A stretch of DNA of 64,000 bases from Promethearchaeota archaeon Loki_b32 (lineage in GTDB: Archaea; Asgardarchaeota; Lokiarchaeia; Sigyniarchaeales; SOKP01), in contig NJBH01000009.1 of NCBI GenBank assembly GCA_005223125.1, forward strand, positions 62,323 to 126,322. Direction: 5' to 3'. Numbering within the stretch: the first letter of the stretch is position 1; every line of letters starts with the position of its first letter. The position numbers and the translations under genes were made by a program. Below the pieces are notes generated by a model. The model was not told the DNA's origin, did not search any database, and saw only the letters and a program-made list of their open reading frames with translations. Positions 16,224-62,423 of the stretch are shown piece by piece.

Positions 16224-16251
16224 TAAAGGTTTAAGGTGCACTTTTAGAACA
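16224..16251 (-). promoter_or_regulatory. Conserved 28-bp upstream motif, copy 1 (putative operator + BRE/TATA)
   Basis: taaaggtttaaggtgcacttttagaaca; one mismatch to the copies at 17482 and 31219; 59 bp upstream of the ICMT-like start. Confidence 0.75.
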
Positions 16252-17481: not shown

Positions 17482-17509
17482 TAAAGGTTTAAGGTGCACT
17501 TTTCGAACA
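17482..17509 (-). promoter_or_regulatory. Conserved 28-bp upstream motif, copy 2
   Basis: taaaggtttaaggtgcacttttcgaaca; 52 bp upstream of the LVIVD gene start. Confidence 0.75.
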
Positions 17510-22005: not shown

Positions 22006-23307
22006 TCACATTAGTGTCTGAGAAAACATCTTTATTTTATCCCGAATAATTTTTTCAGATGCAAATCGAGCATCCCCCACGTCAACATCAATTAAAAGCA
22101 TTGGTATACCAACTTCATCTCTTAATGCTTCTCTTAAAATTTGAGGAACACTTCCGAATTGCTTACAACCAATATGAGATGTAAATATAAAACAATCAGC
22201 GGAATAATCTTTTGCTAATTGAACACATTCATCTATAAAAGAGTAATAGAATTCTGCAGACTGCTTAACCATGGGTGCTTCCATTGACCTCCTCGCCATA
22301 CCATAAAGCATAGTATCTAAATCTGATTTAGTATTAATTGGTTCAGCAAAATTATAATTAAAAATATCAAATAAAATTGACATTCCAAGATGACGATCTA
22401 ACCATTCTCCAAGTTCTAAATCAAAGAATATAATCATATATGGCCAAATACTCCTTATTTTTTCCTCTCCAGCATGGTGTTCTTTATTTTTATACCTTTT
22501 TTTCGATATTTCAAGCATGTCATTATAAAAACTTGCTTTTTCAGTACGCCCAGATAAATAAATTGCTGCTGCTGCTGACATTGCGTTAAACATATTCTCT
22601 ACCGGACATGGTTTTACCTTTTTTAATTCGAAAATTTCTAATTGCAGTTTTGTCACTTGATTTTCTAATTCAATTGCTTCTCGTAATTTACTATAATCGG
22701 GTTCTTGATTTATAACTTTACCTAACGCTTCTAATCCCAATTTAATTTGTTCCCCATGATAATGATAACTTTTTTCCTCTTTTAAAAAAGGTAAATCTGG
22801 TGCTATAAGTGGGATTTTTTTATGATAAGAGAAAAAGGGATATGATGCGTATGTGTTATCACATGGAGCTGTTGGTGTAATAATAGCATCAAACTTAAAT
22901 AGATCATCCAAAGTCATTCCCATTGTACCTTTCTGAGAGGTACAAGTGTGAAAGGGGTGACCCCAATTAGTAATTAAATCATAATATTTCTCAGAACCAT
23001 GCGGTAATAGTGCTGCCAATAGATATGAAACAGCTTCTATACAAACAGGAACACAATCAAAGCAAGAAAGGTATTCTGTAGGGAAAGAGAAATGGTGTCC
23101 AATTATGGGTAAGCCTTCTCTTGCTTTTTGGATATATTCTTCCATCACTGATTTTAAATGTTTTAAACCAATCCGTAATGAGGGGATTCCCTTATCTGGG
23201 AGTATTCCTTCTATTAATCCAGAAGTAGATTTAACTGCTTCATATAACATTTTATATGGAATTATTCTATTTTCTAATTCAACTCTTTTTGCCAATTTTT
23301 TTTTCAC
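22006..23307 (-). CDS. 2-hydroxyacyl-CoA dehydratase subunit (HgdA/FldB/BcrB-like)
   Basis: TCTSQK, APCD, SHIGCKQ, GIPMLLIDVDVGDAR. Confidence 0.82.
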   Translation of the reverse strand: MKKKLAKRVELENRIIPYKMLYEAVKSTSGLIEGILPDKGIPSLRIGLKHLKSVMEEYIQKAREGLPIIGHHFSFPTEYLSCFDCVPVCIEAVSYLLAALLPHGSEKYYDLITNWGHPFHTCTSQKGTMGMTLDDLFKFDAIITPTAPCDNTYASYPFFSYHKKIPLIAPDLPFLKEEKSYHYHGEQIKLGLEALGKVINQEPDYSKLREAIELENQVTKLQLEIFELKKVKPCPVENMFNAMSAAAAIYLSGRTEKASFYNDMLEISKKRYKNKEHHAGEEKIRSIWPYMIIFFDLELGEWLDRHLGMSILFDIFNYNFAEPINTKSDLDTMLYGMARRSMEAPMVKQSAEFYYSFIDECVQLAKDYSADCFIFTSHIGCKQFGSVPQILREALRDEVGIPMLLIDVDVGDARFASEKIIRDKIKMFSQTLM

Positions 23308-23335
23308 ACTTTTCTTTATGTTATATCTTAATATC

Positions 23336-24481
23336 TCAAGAAATCATTTCTATAAAAGCTTCAATTCTCGTTTGCAAACGAGTAGTATCTGCTTGAAAGA
23401 ATTCTCTATCAATATTTAGAACAGGAATTTCCAAATCTTTTAATTCATGAGAAAAAAGCATATTATCACATCCTGCTAGATCACAATTATTAATTCTTTG
23501 TAAAATTACTCCATCAATCTTTGCCCTTTTTATTTCATCTTTAATAAAATCTAAGCGCCGTTGATGATCATCCATCATTCTGGGGCAAGAGATCCGGTAA
23601 TAATGACGCCTAGAAATCATTTCTAAAGGATTCTTTCCATCTTCTAATTTTACATCATCTAAGAAATTTCTAATTCCAAAACATAAGAAATCTGATACAA
23701 TATTAGCGCCAGAATTTTCAATTAGTTTTGTAAAATTAATATCATCAACTTCACTTCCGACAAGCATTACTCTTTTAGCATCTGTTTTCAATCCTTCAAT
23801 CTCTTTTAATAAATTTAAAATTCGTTCTAATTCCTGATTAGCTATATCTTTTGGAACAGAAGAATTAGCCATCGATATTTGCAATGCCTCAGTTCCTGTG
23901 ATTTTTGGAGCATCTTGAATTCTTAATTTATGAATCTCTCGTAATAGACTTCGATTCTTGTTGTAAATATTAATAGAATTTAACAGATCCTCATCAGTGA
24001 TTTTTTTATTATTATAATTTTTTTCTATTTCTTCTTTTAATTCCTCAATTTCTCTTTTATACCATTCAAAACCTTCTTTAGTTACGATATGGGGTATAGC
24101 AATATAGAATCTTGGTACTTTTTTATTAAAGCCCTCACGTTTAAATACCTTTAAATCAAATAATTCAAACATTCTGCGGGAATGATCGCAGGAATTACAA
24201 ATAAAAAGACCATCCAAAAAATCATAAAACCCACGTAAAGCCATATCTAATGTGGCTCTAACGAATGAACATGTAAACCGTACCATATATATATCTCCGA
24301 GATCTGTATCCTCATGTCCAGTTGCTCTGATTCTGAATGGTAATAAATTAGCGGCATACAATAATTCTTCTGGAATATAGGTACAATAATGACCTACTAT
24401 TTTTTTATTATCTTTTTGCCAATCTTCAATATAATGATTTTTTATAGAATTAGAAGCTGTTAAAAATGGATCTTTGTACAA
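23336..24481 (-). CDS. 2-hydroxyacyl-CoA dehydratase subunit (HgdB/FldC/BcrC-like)
   Basis: CTYIPEELLYAA, TCSFVR, NSCDHSRR, SCPR, NCD, TRIEAFIEMI. Confidence 0.85.
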   Translation of the reverse strand: MYKDPFLTASNSIKNHYIEDWQKDNKKIVGHYCTYIPEELLYAANLLPFRIRATGHEDTDLGDIYMVRFTCSFVRATLDMALRGFYDFLDGLFICNSCDHSRRMFELFDLKVFKREGFNKKVPRFYIAIPHIVTKEGFEWYKREIEELKEEIEKNYNNKKITDEDLLNSINIYNKNRSLLREIHKLRIQDAPKITGTEALQISMANSSVPKDIANQELERILNLLKEIEGLKTDAKRVMLVGSEVDDINFTKLIENSGANIVSDFLCFGIRNFLDDVKLEDGKNPLEMISRRHYYRISCPRMMDDHQRRLDFIKDEIKRAKIDGVILQRINNCDLAGCDNMLFSHELKDLEIPVLNIDREFFQADTTRLQTRIEAFIEMIS

Positions 24482-25075: not shown

Positions 25076-25435
25076 TTACTCAAAAGGTTCAAAACTTCTA
25101 CAAATAGATTCTTTTTTTAAAAATTTATTCTTAATTTGACAATGAAATATCTCCTCATTATAGTAGACACAATTGCAACAAGAGAAGAGATGATTTTTTA
25201 GTTTTTTAGTTATTTCCTTTAATTTTTCAGGATACTTTCCTTTACTTAACATAGTTTCAAGTTTATCGTGTGATGTTGCTGTTAATTTACAAAAGATGAC
25301 CTTTGGAGAGGGAGGATTCCATATTTCAATCAAAGACGTACCAGTTACATTCGTAGGAGAATTTTGGTTGTTATACCCACATTTACAAAATTTTTTCCTT
25401 AACATATTTCCACATTCAGGACAGAATTCAACCAA
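25076..25435 (-). CDS. Small double Cys-cluster protein with an RpoM/TFS-like N-terminal Zn ribbon (paralog A)
   Basis: VEFCPECGNML..CKCGY; C-terminal CCNCVYY..HC..SIC. Confidence 0.7.
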   Translation of the reverse strand: MVEFCPECGNMLRKKFCKCGYNNQNSPTNVTGTSLIEIWNPPSPKVIFCKLTATSHDKLETMLSKGKYPEKLKEITKKLKNHLFSCCNCVYYNEEIFHCQIKNKFLKKESICRSFEPFE

Positions 25436-26961: not shown

Positions 26962-27687
26962 TTATTCTTTTTGATTTACATATAACTTTATTTCACGATT
27001 ATATCTTTCAAGTATTATTAAATCAAGTTTAGCCAGTTTATCAACATGATATTTCACAGAACTTCGGCTCATATCTAATTTCTTAGCAATCTTCGCTGAA
27101 TTAATGCCAGGATTTTTTTCAATTAAATCTAGAATTTTTATGCTAGTTTTAGACTTTGTAATCAATTTTAATGGTATTGTTTTCATTTCTTTTTTGGATA
27201 AAACAGGGAAAAAGGATACATATTGTCCTAATTTCTCTTTTTTAATTATTCCATATTGTAATAATACATATAAATGCCATTGTAACTGCCCCTTCTGCAA
27301 ATTACATTTTCTAAGGAGTTCATTATTATGGATTCCGGGTTCTTGTAGAATTTTATTAATGATATTTTTACGGTTTTCATTTTCAAAAATATCTTCGAAA
27401 GATAAATAAGTATACCGTTCAGCTACTATTGTTTTTCTTCTAAAATAGTCTTTATACTGATTAACAGTTAGTATGATTAAAAGTGATGTTAAAATTAGTG
27501 TGAAAAATGCTAATAAATCGATTAAAAACCAATTGATATTATCTTCAAGATAAAAAGATATCTTCGTTTCAGGAGAGATTAGTAGGAATAAGGATAATAG
27601 AGAAATGCAAATAAGAGTGATTATAATACCTAATTTGATATAAAATAACCGTTTGTATTTCCCTATTTCATTTTTAAAAAAACTCAT
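26962..27687 (-). CDS. Membrane-anchored (2 TM) double winged-helix transcriptional regulator
   Basis: Two TM segments, then IFENENR...PGIHNNEL...LQKGQLQWHL...PGINSAKI...VKYHVDKL; paralog of 14837-15568. Confidence 0.85.
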   Translation of the reverse strand: MSFFKNEIGKYKRLFYIKLGIIITLICISLLSLFLLISPETKISFYLEDNINWFLIDLLAFFTLILTSLLIILTVNQYKDYFRRKTIVAERYTYLSFEDIFENENRKNIINKILQEPGIHNNELLRKCNLQKGQLQWHLYVLLQYGIIKKEKLGQYVSFFPVLSKKEMKTIPLKLITKSKTSIKILDLIEKNPGINSAKIAKKLDMSRSSVKYHVDKLAKLDLIILERYNREIKLYVNQKE

Positions 27688-27707: not shown

Positions 27708-27998
27708 CTAATTAAAAATTTTAAAAATTATTTTAGTCTTAATTTTTTTTTTAAAATCGTTTACTCTAACTGTAGAATATAAGGTTCCCGCGGGGTAAAT
27801 ATGTTTGGAATTTTCTATCCGAACAAGAACGATTAAAAATCCTAAGAAACTAACTACTATAATTAATAGGATTTTATATAATAGAGAATGTTTACTGTTA
27901 TCAAATAAAAATACTTTGTTTATTTCTTTTCTGTTTAGACCTAATCCCTCTCCAATTTTATATAGATTAAATATTTTATCAAACATTTTATTGATCAC
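27708..27998 (-). CDS. Small single-TM protein, YPxGTxYS family member 3 (putative rSAM substrate)
   Basis: LYKIGEGLGLNRKEIN - TM - YPAGTLYSTVRVNDF; likely start at ATG 27986. Confidence 0.75.
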   Translation of the reverse strand: MINKMFDKIFNLYKIGEGLGLNRKEINKVFLFDNSKHSLLYKILLIIVVSFLGFLIVLVRIENSKHIYPAGTLYSTVRVNDFKKKIKTKIIFKIFN

Positions 27999-28065
27999 AC
28001 TTCTATTTTCTTGTTAAAAAATTATTGGTTTTAAATTTTGGTGTCTTAATTTTCTCTTTATGCAA

Positions 28066-29412
28066 TCATGATATAGTTCCAATAGAAGTAATTGGTTCAA
28101 ATTTTGGTACGACACCTTTCTTACGTTTTATCCAATTTAATTCATCCGTTATAACAGATTTTATCTTACCTTTATTTCGAATATTAGTTATTCTTAGAAG
28201 ACGCAATGCCTTTTTATAAATTTTCAAAGCCTGAGAATTCGATTTTAGCTTTACTAAAACTTTACCTAAATTCCAATAAAATAAAAAATTGTCTCTATAG
28301 AGTTGTATAGCTTTTAAAAGCATATTATAGGCTTTCTTATAATTTTTTTGATAAAATATCTTTACACCGAGATAAAAAAAATTAAAAGCACTTCTTTCTG
28401 CTAAAGCAGATGCGAAAAACTTTAAATTATAATCTTCGTTTTCCTTTGATAAATTTCTTAATTTATCGATAAGATTTTTTCTTTCCTCTTTGACTTTTAT
28501 TAGATTTGTTATAAATTTTCTCGCAAAAGATTCTATTGAATAAAAAACAATTTTTTGTGATCCTGAATTAATCGGACCTTTTTTTAATAAATTATATAGA
28601 ATATTGGGGAAATTGTATTGAATTAAAAGATCTGTAATTTCTCGTATGTTCGAATTTTCAGATTGAGAAATAAAATATTTACTTTCTATTACTTTCAATA
28701 ACAGATTGACGATTTGAGGCCATTTTATGAGTGATTCAATAATTAAGTCATAAATTAACTTTTTATTCTTCTTTCTTTTAAATTCAAGCGTTTGTATTGC
28801 GATAAAAGATAATAAATCTTCTTGTTCTTTAATTAACAGTGAATCATTAAAATTACTGTAATTCATAGTAAGTAATTTTTTACGGATTTTAGCTATAATT
28901 TGAAATATTTCTGTTTCATATACATTCATTACTTTAATACATTCAAATCTTACTGATGGAATAAATTCATGGTTGTAAAAACTTTTGGTACTCATATTTT
29001 CAAATCCATTATTTTCTAATAGTTCAATTAACAAGAAAGGAGGAAAACATAATTTATGTTGTAAACCTTTATGGGGTATTCCGTAAATCCAACCTAAAAT
29101 TTCTTTTTTTTGTTCTTTGGTCGAATCTAGATAATGCCGACATACTTTCTTGAGATCAGGAGTCTCAATAATTAATTTACCTCCTGGTTCTAATACCCGA
29201 AAAAATTCACTTAAGGCATAGATTGCTTCAAAAAATGATAAGTGCTCTATTAGATGAATGGCTTTTATTTCTTCACTACAATTATCTTCAAATTGTAAAT
29301 CTATAGCGGACATTAATTTATCTGCAATTAATGTTTCATATAAATCAATATTGCAATAACCTATCTCGTACTTTTTTCCACAACCGATATTTAATTTCAT
29401 TTTTCTTTTCAA
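28066..29412 (-). CDS. Class I SAM-dependent methyltransferase with C-terminal TPR region
   Basis: KLNIGCG...NID, HLIEHL, FFRVLEPGGKLIIETPD; C-terminal YKKAYNMLLKAIQL...YWNLGKVL...ALKIYKKAL TPR pattern; likely start 29400. Confidence 0.82.
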   Translation of the reverse strand: MKRKMKLNIGCGKKYEIGYCNIDLYETLIADKLMSAIDLQFEDNCSEEIKAIHLIEHLSFFEAIYALSEFFRVLEPGGKLIIETPDLKKVCRHYLDSTKEQKKEILGWIYGIPHKGLQHKLCFPPFLLIELLENNGFENMSTKSFYNHEFIPSVRFECIKVMNVYETEIFQIIAKIRKKLLTMNYSNFNDSLLIKEQEDLLSFIAIQTLEFKRKKNKKLIYDLIIESLIKWPQIVNLLLKVIESKYFISQSENSNIREITDLLIQYNFPNILYNLLKKGPINSGSQKIVFYSIESFARKFITNLIKVKEERKNLIDKLRNLSKENEDYNLKFFASALAERSAFNFFYLGVKIFYQKNYKKAYNMLLKAIQLYRDNFLFYWNLGKVLVKLKSNSQALKIYKKALRLLRITNIRNKGKIKSVITDELNWIKRKKGVVPKFEPITSIGTIS

Positions 29413-29656
29413 AATCTTTAATTTTTATAGTAGAATATTTTGTGCCAGATGGATAAGTACTATCTGCTGAATTTATTCCAATAGATATTAAGAAGAATAA
29501 TAAGATAGAAGATGATACAATTAAAATAAAAATAAATAATATTCTAAATGAAATTTGATGTTTTTTATCATGAAAAAATAATAAATTATTTACCTCTTTT
29601 TTAGATAGCCCTAAAAATTTGCCAAATCTGTAAAATTGAGCAATTGTGGTAATCAT
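29345..29656 (-). CDS. Small single-TM protein, YPxGTxYS family member 2 (putative rSAM substrate)
   Basis: FYRFGKFLGLSKKEVN - TM - ADSTYPSGTKYSTIKIKDF; ATGA overlap with the upstream paralog. Confidence 0.75.
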   Translation of the reverse strand: MITTIAQFYRFGKFLGLSKKEVNNLLFFHDKKHQISFRILFIFILIVSSSILLFFLISIGINSADSTYPSGTKYSTIKIKDFEKKNEIKYRLWKKVRDRLLQY

Positions 29657-29988
29657 TTTAAAGATTTTACACCAATATTTAGAACTTTAAAAAATCTACT
29701 ATAGAAAGGGGAAACGAGTTTGCTAAATCTAGATTTATTCTTAAAATCTTTAACTTTTACTGACGAATAAAAAGAGTTGGAAGGATACGTGGAATCTGCG
29801 GGGTTGGTTATTATCATAAAGAGTGAAAATATAAATATACAGAAAAATGCAATAATAATTATGGAAAGACAGAAAAGTTTCATTTTTTTATATCTCCCCG
29901 AATAAGATAAGAAAACTCTATTGATTTCATTTTTATGAATTCCTAAACTCCTACCAATTTGATAAAACTGGATAATCTCATCAAACAT
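29653..29988 (-). CDS. Small single-TM protein, YPxGTxYS family member 1 (putative rSAM substrate)
   Basis: FYQIGRSLGIHKNEIN - TM - ADSTYPSNSFYSSVKVKDF; GGAGG RBS at 30001-30005. Confidence 0.75.
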   Translation of the reverse strand: MFDEIIQFYQIGRSLGIHKNEINRVFLSYSGRYKKMKLFCLSIIIIAFFCIFIFSLFMIITNPADSTYPSNSFYSSVKVKDFKNKSRFSKLVSPFYSRFFKVLNIGVKSLK

Positions 29989-30017: not shown

Positions 30018-31172
30018 TTAATTTAAGATATTAATTAATTTTGATATTGTAGTATCTACTTTTTTATTAATAGGTACAAGTTTATGATTTATCATTGTAT
30101 TTTCAATGGCTCTCAAACAATAAGGGTTTTCAAAGGATTTTAAAGCTAGACTAGTTCCAAGGCAACCCCCCCTACAATCATCAGCAAGATCGCATTGCTG
30201 GCAAAAATCTTTTAATGGATATCTTTTATTTTTCAATCTTTTTAAAATTTCATCTAAACTTTCATTTCTAATATTACCTTCAATATAATCATCTGGAAGT
30301 GTAAGACATCCTTTTATGTTTCCATTACTTTGAATACCTAAAACTGAATGACCTGCTTGACACCCAACCCAAGGATTTAATCCTAATTTAGGAATAAACC
30401 TTGAGAAATATCCAAAGCAATGAGCCCCGATTAAAGGTAATCTTTTGTAAGAATATTTTTTATGATTAATTGCTATAAATAATGCCAAAGTATAATATTC
30501 TTCTCTAGAAATAACTAATTCTTTTGGAAAACGTCCAATAGGGACTGCTAATTGGATTTGCCATGCGATATTTTTATCAATTAATAACTTCTTAATCATG
30601 TTTATTTCTTTAAAATTAATTTTACTTACGGACGTAATAACAGTTACTGGAAGCTTTTCTTTTTTTAGTAAACTTATAAGATTTAAAGTTTTTTTGAATG
30701 AATTGTTGATACCCCGTAAATAATCATGTGTTTCTCCTCTTCCTCCATCTAAACTTAGAGATACACAGTCTGTTTTTAATTCTTTTATCTCTTGTATATG
30801 TTTCTCTAAATTTAATCCATTCGTGATTATGGATAATTGCATTTTTTGATTTTTTACATCTCTTGCAATGTCATACCAATCATCTCGTAATAATGGTTCG
30901 CCCCCCATTAAAGCAACTCCCTTATAACCATATGACTTTAAGTCTTTAACTAATTTTAAAGCTTCATTTGTATTTAATTCATCAGAGCGAGCAAATCCTG
31001 CATCTGAACCACAGTGAATACATTTACTATTGCACTTTAACGTGATTTCCCAAACTGCACAATTAGGTTTAATTTTATTTAATAATAGATCTGAAAATTT
31101 CGTCATATGATTTTCTGAATTACGTTTATTATTGTTATTTATGATTTGTAAATTAAAATCCTTTGTTTGCAA
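30018..31172 (-). CDS. Radical SAM / SPASM-domain protein
   Basis: VWEITLKCNSKCIHCGS (CxxxCxxC), GGEPLLR; SPASM GCQAG...GNIKGC...GNIR...CQQC...CRGGC...PYC. Confidence 0.93.
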   Translation of the reverse strand: MQTKDFNLQIINNNNKRNSENHMTKFSDLLLNKIKPNCAVWEITLKCNSKCIHCGSDAGFARSDELNTNEALKLVKDLKSYGYKGVALMGGEPLLRDDWYDIARDVKNQKMQLSIITNGLNLEKHIQEIKELKTDCVSLSLDGGRGETHDYLRGINNSFKKTLNLISLLKKEKLPVTVITSVSKINFKEINMIKKLLIDKNIAWQIQLAVPIGRFPKELVISREEYYTLALFIAINHKKYSYKRLPLIGAHCFGYFSRFIPKLGLNPWVGCQAGHSVLGIQSNGNIKGCLTLPDDYIEGNIRNESLDEILKRLKNKRYPLKDFCQQCDLADDCRGGCLGTSLALKSFENPYCLRAIENTMINHKLVPINKKVDTTISKLINILN

Positions 31173-31218: not shown

Positions 31219-31246
31219 TAAAGGTTTAAGGTGCACTTTTCGAACA
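31219..31246 (-). promoter_or_regulatory. Conserved 28-bp upstream motif, copy 3
   Basis: taaaggtttaaggtgcacttttcgaaca, identical to copy 2; 47 bp upstream of the rSAM TTG start. Confidence 0.75.
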
Positions 31247-31369: not shown

Positions 31370-31741
31370 TCAACCGATAATATCATACGGTTCATAACTT
31401 TTGCATATAGAATCTTTACTTAGATACTTATTCTTAAATTTACAATGAGATATTTCCTCATAATAGTAAACACAGTTTCTGCATGAATAAAGATGATTTT
31501 TAAATTTTTCTCTAACTTCCTTTAATTTTTCTGGAATCATCCCTTTATTTAGCATAGATTTAAGTTTTTCATGTGGAGTTGCTGTTATTTTACAATAGAT
31601 GGCATTTGGAGAGGGAGGGTTCCAAATTTTTATCAAATGATTGTGAGACGCATCCTTAGAGGTAGCATCCAACTCACCATACCCACACCGGCAAGTTTTT
31701 TTTCTTAACATGTTTCCACATTCAGGACAGAATTCCACCAT
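31370..31741 (-). CDS. Small double Cys-cluster protein with an RpoM/TFS-like N-terminal Zn ribbon (paralog B)
   Basis: MVEFCPECGNMLRKKTCRCGY...IWNPPSP...CRNCVYY..HC..SIC; clear paralog of 25076-25435. Confidence 0.7.
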   Translation of the reverse strand: MVEFCPECGNMLRKKTCRCGYGELDATSKDASHNHLIKIWNPPSPNAIYCKITATPHEKLKSMLNKGMIPEKLKEVREKFKNHLYSCRNCVYYYEEISHCKFKNKYLSKDSICKSYEPYDIIG

Positions 31742-32656: not shown

Positions 32657-33631
32657 TTATCTTTTTTTAATTTCGAAATTTACATCTTCGAATTTATTAT
32701 GAATAGCACGATAAATTTTAAACTTTCCATCACCTAGAGCATGTTTTATAATCTCATTAATCTCTTTTTCATTTAGAAAGCTTTCTGAGATGATTTTGTC
32801 AATCTTTGAATACACTAATTCCTTAATTTTATATCTAAACCTATTTTTTTTCTTTTCATCAATAGATTCAGATAATTCTAAATGTTCTTTGTGATCCATG
32901 ATATTTTGCACTAAATCCTCCACCCCTTCCCCAGAAATAGCGTTAGTCATAGAGACTGGTGGTCTCCATCCACTCTGGAAAGTAGAATCGTCAAGCATCA
33001 TCTCAATTTGTACAGCAATATCTTCGCCACCTAAATCTTTCTTGTTAATATCATAGATATCTCCAATTTCAATTATACCAGCTTTCTGCATCTGTATCGC
33101 ATCCCCATAACCTGGTACGAGAATTACTACAACAGAATAAGCTAGATTGTAAATATCAAACTCCGCTTGACCTACACCGACGGTTTCTATGATAATTAAA
33201 TCCATTCCATATGCTTCATATAATAAACTAATGTCAAAAACCGCTCTTGAAATACCCCCTTTATAACCTCTTGATGCGAGACTACGCAAAAATACGTTAG
33301 GATGTAATGAAATATCTGTCATACGGACTCTATCTCCTAAAAATGCACCTCCACTAAAAGGAGATGTAGGATCTACACAAATAATCCCAACAGATTTTCC
33401 TTCTTCCAACAGCTTTTTAGAAATTTCACTTGTTAATGTACTCTTTCCAACACCAGGAGAACCCGTAATTCCAACAATATAGGAATCATGGCTTATTCCT
33501 TCGAAATGTTGGAAAATCTCGTGTGCCTTGTCAGGCTCATTTTCTATAATGGTTATTAATTTTGCTAAGGCAACCTTGTCTTTTTTTTTAAATCTATTAA
33601 TTAGCGTATCAATATCTTGCGTGGTTTTCAA
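32657..33631 (-). CDS. meaB: Acyl-CoA mutase-associated GTPase MeaB/ArgK
   Basis: GITGSPGVGKST, VDPTSPFSGGAFLGDRVRM, IETVGVGQ, PGYGDAIQ. Confidence 0.93.
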   Translation of the reverse strand: MKTTQDIDTLINRFKKKDKVALAKLITIIENEPDKAHEIFQHFEGISHDSYIVGITGSPGVGKSTLTSEISKKLLEEGKSVGIICVDPTSPFSGGAFLGDRVRMTDISLHPNVFLRSLASRGYKGGISRAVFDISLLYEAYGMDLIIIETVGVGQAEFDIYNLAYSVVVILVPGYGDAIQMQKAGIIEIGDIYDINKKDLGGEDIAVQIEMMLDDSTFQSGWRPPVSMTNAISGEGVEDLVQNIMDHKEHLELSESIDEKKKNRFRYKIKELVYSKIDKIISESFLNEKEINEIIKHALGDGKFKIYRAIHNKFEDVNFEIKKR

Positions 33632-61886: not shown

Positions 61887-62423
61887 ATGGATTTATTTGA
61901 AGCAATAAAGAACAGATATTCTTATCGAGGAGAATATAAGGAAATAGAGATTCCAATAAAACACTTAAAACAGGTTGTTGAGGCTGGTTTACAAGCTCCT
62001 TCTGGTTCGAATAAACAAACAACTTCTTTTGTCATAGTAAATGATGAGATAATTCTTAATAAAATCAGAGAAGTACTTCCTAAGGTAAAACCAATCCAGA
62101 CAACCTCAGCTATTATTTTATGTATTATGGATAAAAATCCAGAGCAAATTCATGGAAACCCACATTATGAGATAGAAGATTGTTCTGCGGCGACAGAAAA
62201 TATGCTTATTGCTATAACCGCACTTGGATATGCTTCTGTTTGGCTTGATGGAATTTTAAGGAGTGATCAAATTGCCGAAAATTTAGGAGAAATAATAAAT
62301 CTCCCTAAAACAAAAACAGTTAGAATAGTATTACCTATCGGTATTCCTACCATAGATGGTCCTAGACCTGATAAACTACCATTTGATCAACGAGCATGGT
62401 TTAATCAATATAATGGTGAATAA
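61887..62423 (+). CDS. Nitroreductase family protein
   Basis: AIKNRYSYR, APSGSNKQ, DCSAATENMLIAITALGYASVW. Confidence 0.9.
   Translation: MDLFEAIKNRYSYRGEYKEIEIPIKHLKQVVEAGLQAPSGSNKQTTSFVIVNDEIILNKIREVLPKVKPIQTTSAIILCIMDKNPEQIHGNPHYEIEDCSAATENMLIAITALGYASVWLDGILRSDQIAENLGEIINLPKTKTVRIVLPIGIPTIDGPRPDKLPFDQRAWFNQYNGE

Follow-up and report, generated by a model that had tools for sequence, protein, structure and literature searches.

PlpX-type spliceases are radical S-adenosylmethionine (SAM)/SPASM enzymes which excise a tyramine equivalent at X-Y-G, and in the binary splicease systems the Y protein is replaced by a leader helix (PMC11414181, PMC11626197, PMC11002830, PMC9811515). The corresponding family model TIGR04103 is given as IPR026482 (PMC11002830). 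The spliceotide systems to which the present locus was compared comprise PlpX/PcpX with PlpY (type I) and the binary systems RhaX/RhaA, RcsX and RasX. The locus is located in a stretch of 64,000 nucleotides (hereafter the window) of Promethearchaeota archaeon Loki_b32, corresponding to positions 62,323 to 126,322 of contig NJBH01000009.1, and encodes on its minus strand three paralogous small proteins together with a radical SAM/SPASM enzyme and a protein (named methyltransferase-TPR) that combines a methyltransferase domain with TPR repeats. The window is AT-rich (G+C content of 25-35%) and its source is an Asgard archaeon of the Loki lineage, its homologues bearing the labels Lokiarchaeia or Promethearchaeota. 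A literature search, which did not extend to the spliceotide survey of Scott et al. (Chem 2022), found no description of an archaeal splicease or of this cassette.

The small proteins are considered most likely to be substrates of the neighbouring radical SAM enzyme and methyltransferase, and the cassette is most likely self-contained, consisting of three parts: the radical SAM/SPASM enzyme, the methyltransferase-TPR protein and one to four small proteins. The complete chain of events, in which the small proteins would be radical SAM substrates, modified at their tyrosine motifs and retained in the membrane, is favoured with somewhat less assurance.

Small proteins with a leader hairpin and two tyrosine motifs

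The original prediction had described three paralogous proteins of approximately 100 amino acids with a common leader, a transmembrane segment and a tyrosine core, and this description was borne out, all open reading frames (ORFs) being present and their resemblance lying far beyond chance. The three proteins are 34-36% identical in pairwise comparison, and 16 columns of their alignment (among them G, LG, E, N, YP, YS and DF) do not vary; all three proteins carry the N-terminal motif F-Y-x-I-G-x-x-L-G-L-x-K-x-E-I-N and the core motif Y-P-x-G-T-x-Y-S-T-V-K-V-K-D-F. When a profile of the three was run against the window's own genome, E-values of 1e-40 to 1e-46 were obtained, and a fourth copy was located in a second cassette of the same genome (contig C52). 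Over 19 residues, the hydrophobic segment averages approximately 3.1-3.3 on the Kyte-Doolittle scale, and its sequence is poorly conserved. The AlphaFold model of a small protein contains helices at residues 2-14 and 19-26 and a confident helix at residues 34-60, with the tyrosine core being modelled as coil (predicted local distance difference test, pLDDT, of approximately 60). A likeness of the leader to death-fold or helix-turn-helix domains, which had been put forward earlier as a weak inference, found no support, the leader being simply a helical hairpin of 26 residues without a family match.

A word-indexed search recovered 126 metagenomic relatives, all of them without names, and a profile search run exhaustively over 1.84 billion representatives yielded 176 clusters at 50% identity. 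In agreement with the earlier statement that the proteins do not belong to a named family, no Pfam or NCBIfam model was found for them, the only matches being chance-level ones to short membrane families; a search of the ESM Atlas gave no usable match, and look-ups of the clusters returned no names. Across 29 representatives of the family, residues G12, G16, Y64, Y70, S71 and D77 are invariant. Upon addition of relatives of 110-150 residues from other Asgard families (20-29% identity), resulting in a set of 33 sequences, G12, Y64, Y70 and D77 are still invariant, and the conservation of the tyrosines, on which the original prediction had made its proposal depend, thus holds down to 20% identity.

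Most members of the family consist of 82 residues and end right after KDFKxKK, at odds with the notion that a basic tail is common to these proteins. The tail of the 103-residue paralogue (EIKYRLWKKVRDRLLQY) arises because its reading frame continues for 56 nucleotides into the conserved beginning of the methyltransferase-TPR gene, which is read in a different frame, and the tail of its subfamily (EIKYRLWKKIRDRLLQY) is conserved because of this overlapping gene and not for its own sake. The basic tail was therefore rejected as a functional element, being a by-product of gene overlap which most members do not possess.

More distant relatives delimit the part of the small proteins that is conserved. 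In 12 further Asgard loci, the radical SAM and methyltransferase-TPR genes again occur within one stretch, in nearly all cases as direct neighbours, and at most of these loci the pair is accompanied by tandem proteins of 140-180 residues. These proteins contain two or three hydrophobic helices; their start resembles a leader, the first helix is followed by Y-P-(Y/F), and x-Y-G-(V/T)-(Y/F) is located close to the C-terminus. The two tyrosine motifs in these other Asgard families are approximately 50-100 residues apart, with the second hydrophobic helix between them. Therefore, the six-residue spacing of the two tyrosines, which had been noted originally for the three window proteins and which does apply to the single-helix and helix-less forms, is specific to certain lineages, the heart of the family being the two tyrosine motifs themselves. 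At one locus (L064:5521-6034, Asgard family f7), three tandem soluble peptides of 46-65 residues, rich in Lys and Pro, are encoded between the methyltransferase-TPR and radical SAM genes; they have neither leader hairpin nor membrane helix and retain only G-Y-P-(F/Y) and (K/R/S)-Y-G-V-Y.

A hydrophobic helix is absent from 33 of the 266 family sequences, which instead present the leader I-Y-K-I-G-K-x-L-G-L-x-K-K-D-I-D followed by one to five tandem units of the form Y-K-A-G-T-x-Y-G-T-(V/I)-S-P-K-D-(F/I/L). Such helix-less forms occur in metagenome-assembled genomes of Thermoplasmatota, where two precursors are interleaved with three radical SAM/SPASM paralogues sharing 40-51% identity with the window's enzyme. 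The clusters in question (L056-L058, for example L057:3422-14147) also hold an Rv2578c-like radical SAM protein, an OYE-type flavin mononucleotide (FMN) oxidoreductase, a Methyltransf_23 protein, a NosD-like beta-helix protein and an M6 peptidase, the Thermoplasmatota cluster being a richer, soluble version of the system. The presence of a conserved leader and a repeated core beside paralogous maturases is the classic pattern of a precursor of ribosomally synthesised peptides that undergo post-translational modification (RiPPs), and argues strongly that the tyrosine tail is a substrate and not an anchor.

The family of small proteins is thus conserved across Asgard archaea and Thermoplasmatota, its conserved heart consisting of the N-terminal helical hairpin (x-G-x-x-L-G-L-x-x-x-E-I), motif A (Y-P) and motif B (X-Y-(G/S)), and the membrane helix is optional. 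The radical SAM gene accompanies the family throughout, and the methyltransferase-TPR gene does so in Asgard archaea.

The radical SAM/SPASM enzyme and its methyltransferase-TPR partner

The window's radical SAM enzyme possesses a CxxxCxxC motif and seven SPASM cysteines, which are invariant in 17 orthologues; it matches the Pfam models Radical_SAM, Fer4_12 and SPASM, and has no N-terminal RiPP recognition element (RRE) domain. Its best NCBIfam matches are TIGR04103 (199.6 bits, relative to a cut-off of 725) and TIGR03913 (170.9 bits, relative to a cut-off of 592). All archaeal members match TIGR04103 (nif11-class maturase 3) and TIGR03913 (GDL-motif maturase) best, with 171-236 bits, the models for heme, mycofactocin, pyrroloquinoline quinone (PQQ) and sactipeptide enzymes scoring well below these, while the other SPASM proteins of the window's genome reach at most 87 bits against TIGR04103. 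Judged by sequence similarity, the TIGR04103 family of PlpX-type spliceases and the GDL-motif maturase family appear to be the nearest named relatives of the enzyme. Among systems that have been studied, the bacterial spliceases, which remove a tyrosine from the peptide backbone, thus seem to come closest to this uncharacterised archaeal cassette. A search with the radical SAM enzyme of a closed Asgard genome yielded no named organism in culture.

Among individual proteins, the enzyme is 36% identical to a plasmid-borne TIGR04103 protein of Nostoc, which is preceded by a Nif11 precursor ending in G-G-R-G-S-I-A-L-Y-G-L-P-P-E-L-F and followed by an ORF of 71 residues, thus representing a plpA/plpX/plpY layout, and an identity of 36% was likewise obtained with an Agathobacter enzyme (plasmid record). 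In a maximum-likelihood tree, 15 archaeal enzymes fall on one side of a branch (support 79/96) with the Agathobacter enzyme being nearest, and the Nostoc and GDL enzymes form a clade (100/99). In Agathobacter rectalis, an unannotated ORF ending in GPVMYGTGVRM (L081:3707-3913) is located directly upstream of the radical SAM/SPASM gene, an MFS transporter gene being located after it; as a separate observation, this ORF is likely to represent a spliceotide-type precursor in a human gut bacterium.

In the methyltransferase-TPR protein, a class I SAM methyltransferase at the N-terminus is followed by a helical middle part and then by TPR repeats at the C-terminus (Pfam Methyltransf_11/23 and TPR). 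The residues G-x-G, N17 and D19, involved in SAM binding, are invariant in 19 orthologues, and the AlphaFold model (pLDDT of 91.8), when used as a Foldseek query, matches generic class I methyltransferases only.

In order to assess the conservation of the cassette, the window was examined together with 20 further loci taken from its own family and from two distant families, giving a total of 21. The small genes adjoin homologues of both the radical SAM/SPASM and the methyltransferase-TPR gene in 21 of the 21 Asgard loci, with a variable gene order. An all-against-all comparison of neighbouring ORFs identified these two as the sole genes common to every locus, any other neighbour being present in at most seven; the same comparison found no protease, exporter or regulator common to the 21 loci. 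Within the window's family, 52 genomes contain both the small genes and the methyltransferase-TPR gene and approximately 77 contain neither, the mismatches being restricted to five genomes with small genes only and a single one with methyltransferase-TPR only, most of these six cases being located at contig ends. Of 400 genomes of the phylum, 106 contain the methyltransferase-TPR gene, which adjoins the radical SAM gene in nearly every locus examined. The cassette is accordingly a patchy accessory unit, of which the methyltransferase-TPR gene is an obligate third partner in Asgard archaea. Neither this partner nor the kinship of the enzyme with tyramine spliceases had been recognised in the original prediction.

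With regard to the general features of RiPP pathways, a small peptide gene with split leader and core is found beside a modifying enzyme in all 21 Asgard loci and in three Thermoplasmatota loci, and no conserved leader protease or transporter is found near the Asgard cassettes, an M6 peptidase being located near one Thermoplasmatota cluster only.

Compared to the spliceotide systems, the cassette shares a radical SAM enzyme with a SPASM domain for which TIGR04103 is the best or second-best named match, the similarity to a Nostoc member associated with an L-Y-G precursor, an N-terminal helical leader, and a C-terminal variable X-Y-G in most lineages, with several sites in some. Like the binary systems, it is devoid of a separate RRE protein (PMC11414181): no PqqD-like ORF was found in the cassette. 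The leader is predicted as a confident helical hairpin. The cassette differs from the spliceotide systems in that the archaeal enzymes score far under the family cut-off and form a separate clade, that the sites in the window are X-Y-S, that a second invariant motif (Y-P) and a membrane helix between leader and core are present, that the methyltransferase-TPR protein is obligate in Asgard archaea, that the hosts are archaea, and that neither a Nif11 nor an NHLP leader is found.

The GDL-motif (DUF1843)/TIGR03913 systems, representing the other top-scoring family, resemble the cassette in having tandem small precursors directly before the enzyme gene, a class I methyltransferase directly after it in Aureibacter, and an (L/M/P)-Y-(A/G)-A motif near one end of the peptide. 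Their tyrosine motif, however, is N-terminal, their peptides are soluble helical proteins, and their enzyme has a long C-terminal extension (475-516 residues); moreover, the methyltransferases beside the Aureibacter and Thermoplasmatota clusters show no specific similarity to the methyltransferase-TPR protein. The mycofactocin (MftA/MftB/MftC) and PQQ (PqqA/PqqD/PqqE) systems also involve a small conserved precursor whose conserved Tyr, close to the C-terminus, is acted upon by a radical SAM/SPASM enzyme, and likewise have no exporter, but the similarity is much weaker (98 bits for TIGR03962 relative to a cut-off of 265). In contrast to those systems, the cassette contains neither an RRE chaperone (MftB/PqqD) nor a peptidase, its tyrosine is not C-terminal, and its precursors are membrane proteins.

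Proposed tyrosine chemistry and competing explanations

The proposal that the small proteins consist of a recognition leader and a modified core is supported by the synteny with the radical SAM/SPASM gene, by the helix-less multi-core relatives and by the low-confidence coil predicted for the core. In the scheme considered here, the leader hairpin would dock on the enzyme or on the TPR domain, upon which the radical SAM enzyme would abstract a hydrogen at or beside the invariant motif B tyrosine within the unstructured core, and a further modification may be added by the methyltransferase. Since the cassette contains no protease or exporter, the product would be expected to stay tethered to the membrane.

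As to the chemistry itself, excision of a tyramine equivalent by a splicease-like reaction is the leading guess, though a tentative one. Among 304 core units, 17 different residues occur in the position before the second tyrosine (Tyr2), and the position after it is occupied by S in 158, G in 116 and A in 19 units (G being found in 66 of the 76 helix-less units), and X-Y-G is found in relatives from other Asgard families and from Thermoplasmatota. A bolder and rather doubtful extension of this guess is that Asgard archaea and Thermoplasmatota re-cut the protein backbone at tyrosine, the Loki lineage doing so at Tyr-Ser, and that an electrophilic, methylated alpha-ketoamide would then serve as a membrane-anchored group which is protease-blocking or reactive. 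Tyr-Ser is a site not described for spliceases.

Several observations weigh against a modified, splicease-type substrate. The window's three proteins read L-Y-S, K-Y-S and F-Y-S and nearly all close Loki relatives likewise possess Tyr-Ser and not the Tyr-Gly that defines a splice site, and the window proteins are for this reason treated as splicease-substrate-like and are not filed as spliceotides. The enzyme scores given above are a fraction of the family cut-offs, and the archaeal enzymes form their own clade in a tree whose deep order is unresolved and whose outgroup branches are long. No described spliceotide has an equivalent of the second invariant tyrosine (motif A, Y-P), and many antimicrobial RiPPs have hypervariable cores, unlike the strongly conserved one found here. 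The distribution of charge is a further difficulty: the number of Lys/Arg residues within 15 residues of the helix (3.3 versus 1.2) favours an N-in/C-out orientation, which suggests that the core would be placed outside the cell, beyond the reach of a cytoplasmic radical SAM enzyme after insertion, whereas the topology signal is the opposite for the Lys-rich tail that follows D-F and for the loops of two-helix relatives. With the tail outside the cell, the modification would have to take place before insertion, which is conceivable because in the 82-residue members the helix ends approximately 23 residues from the C-terminus, as in tail-anchored proteins.

The best-surviving alternative retains the small proteins as substrates and assumes a different tyrosine chemistry: either a triceptide-like cyclophane, in which the Tyr ring is joined to the beta-carbon two residues further along, or a link in which both tyrosines take part, or else a protein-derived tyrosine cofactor as formed by PqqE from PqqA or by MftC from MftA, with the methyltransferase performing a capping role. 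Taken together, these options are possible but on balance unlikely. The residues following Tyr2 (S, G, A, N or D, and next T, S, A or V) fit an aromatic-X-X3 pattern better than a strict Y-G, and a G-T turn is present between the two invariant tyrosines; the occurrence in Thermoplasmatota of three radical SAM/SPASM paralogues for a unit with two tyrosines suggests several distinct reactions. A strongly conserved core and the lack of a protease or exporter are also properties of cofactor precursors, and the Y-G-V-Y of some Asgard forms recalls MftA, which ends in G-V-Y. Although the MftC, PqqE, WgkB and DynA models do match the window's enzyme, as do MftC/PqqE chains of the PDB, the models do so with 69-130 bits, as compared to 171-236 bits for the GDL and splicease models. 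The position preceding Tyr2 is hypervariable, as in splice sites, and the large distance between the tyrosine motifs in other Asgard families, with a helix between them, speaks against an obligatory Tyr-Tyr link, which was rejected on this basis.

A role of the small proteins as anchors, adaptors or regulators, which would hold the radical SAM and methyltransferase-TPR proteins at the membrane while a lipid, a cofactor or another protein is the target, is improbable. It would account for a leader that is a folded helical hairpin and could be bound by a TPR domain, for the true membrane helix, for the lack of a protease or exporter, and for the overlap of adjacent genes, which suggests translational coupling and matched amounts. 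It does not agree with the soluble, helix-less relatives in which the tyrosine unit is repeated up to five times, nor with the leaderless soluble peptides of the one Asgard locus that keep only the two tyrosine motifs; furthermore, invariant residues are located in the unstructured tail and not in the hairpin or helix, and a cassette may contain anything between one and four copies. That the ORFs are chance frames, as are common at a G+C content of about 25-30%, or decayed copies without function, is refuted by the conservation data, namely the same invariant residues across the 176 clusters in two archaeal phyla, the retained position between two conserved genes and the intact frames in dozens of genomes.

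Locus layout and significance of the cassette

The genes on the minus strand are arranged in the order radical SAM/SPASM, small protein 1, small protein 2, methyltransferase-TPR, small protein 3 and a double winged-helix regulator (Table 1). Small protein 1 is preceded by GGAGG at 12 nucleotides 5' of its ATG, the start of small protein 2 overlaps the stop of small protein 1 (ATGA), and the final 56 nucleotides of the small protein 2 gene (29345-29400) overlap the methyltransferase-TPR start in a different frame. The most likely start of small protein 3 is the ATG at 27986 and not the GTG at 27998, because its homologues open with MFDKIF.

Table 1. Coordinates, within the window, of the cassette genes, the adjacent regulator and the upstream motif.
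Feature	Coordinates	Strand	Remarks
Radical SAM/SPASM enzyme	30018..31106	-	likely start ATG 31106, 362 residues; longest ORF from 31172
Small protein 1	29653..29988	-	111 residues; leader hairpin, membrane helix, core TYPSNSFYSSVKVKDF
Small protein 2	29345..29656	-	103 residues; core TYPSGTKYSTIKIKDF
Methyltransferase-TPR protein	28066..29400	-	444 residues from ATG 29400
Small protein 3	27708..27986	-	92 residues from ATG 27986; core IYPAGTLYSTVRVNDF
Membrane-tethered double winged-helix regulator	26962..27687	-	Pfam HTH_HVO_0163_N and HTH_24
27-bp motif GTTCGAAAAGTGCACCTTAAACCTTTA	31219..31245	-	TATA-like end; approximately 110 nucleotides upstream of the radical SAM start

The 27-bp motif is present in three copies in the window (16224-16250, 17482-17508 and the copy listed in Table 1, all on the minus strand) with at most one mismatch, where none is expected. 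The copies at 16224 and 17482 are each located just upstream of a minus-strand ORF, approximately 14 kb away from the cassette, and the 16-bp core of the motif is also found on the radical SAM side of the cassette in a genome of the same genus (L031). The motif probably serves the cassette as a promoter or operator, and looks like a common promoter/operator that ties it to two other genes.

The regulator gene sits 20 nucleotides downstream of small protein 3, and no homologue of it was found in any of the 20 other cassette loci. Two Zn-ribbon paralogues of 119 and 123 residues (25076-25435 and 31370-31741, minus strand), both beginning with MVEFCPECGNMLRKK and Cys-rich in their C-terminal half, flank the cassette on both sides, and for neither of these was a homologue present beside the cassette at any of the other 20 loci. 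The regulator and the Zn-ribbon genes were both rejected as parts of the cassette, not being conserved at the other loci. Further outwards, the regions 22006-24481 and 32657-33631 encode two subunits resembling 2-hydroxyacyl-CoA dehydratase/benzoyl-CoA reductase and a MeaB/ArgK-like GTPase, which are not conserved with the cassette.

Archaeal radical SAM peptide chemistry is almost unexplored, and the present cassette is common among archaea, about a quarter of the 400 Asgard genomes carrying the methyltransferase-TPR partner. The compactness of the cassette, being composed of three parts, makes it directly testable by co-expression. One core motif is used across soluble multi-core peptides, single-helix membrane proteins and multi-helix membrane proteins. 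If the re-cutting of the backbone at tyrosine proves true, the outcome would be a spliceotide-like product that is the first from archaea and the first bound to a membrane, with the methyltransferase-TPR partner replacing the RRE protein; the rule for the splice site would widen from Tyr-Gly to Tyr-Ser/Tyr-Ala, and the enzymes would act on membrane proteins, which would be useful for engineering proteins with beta-amino acids. A different chemistry would make the cassette an instance of a new tyrosine modification. Either way, a role would be assigned to 176 sequence clusters that have so far been without annotation.

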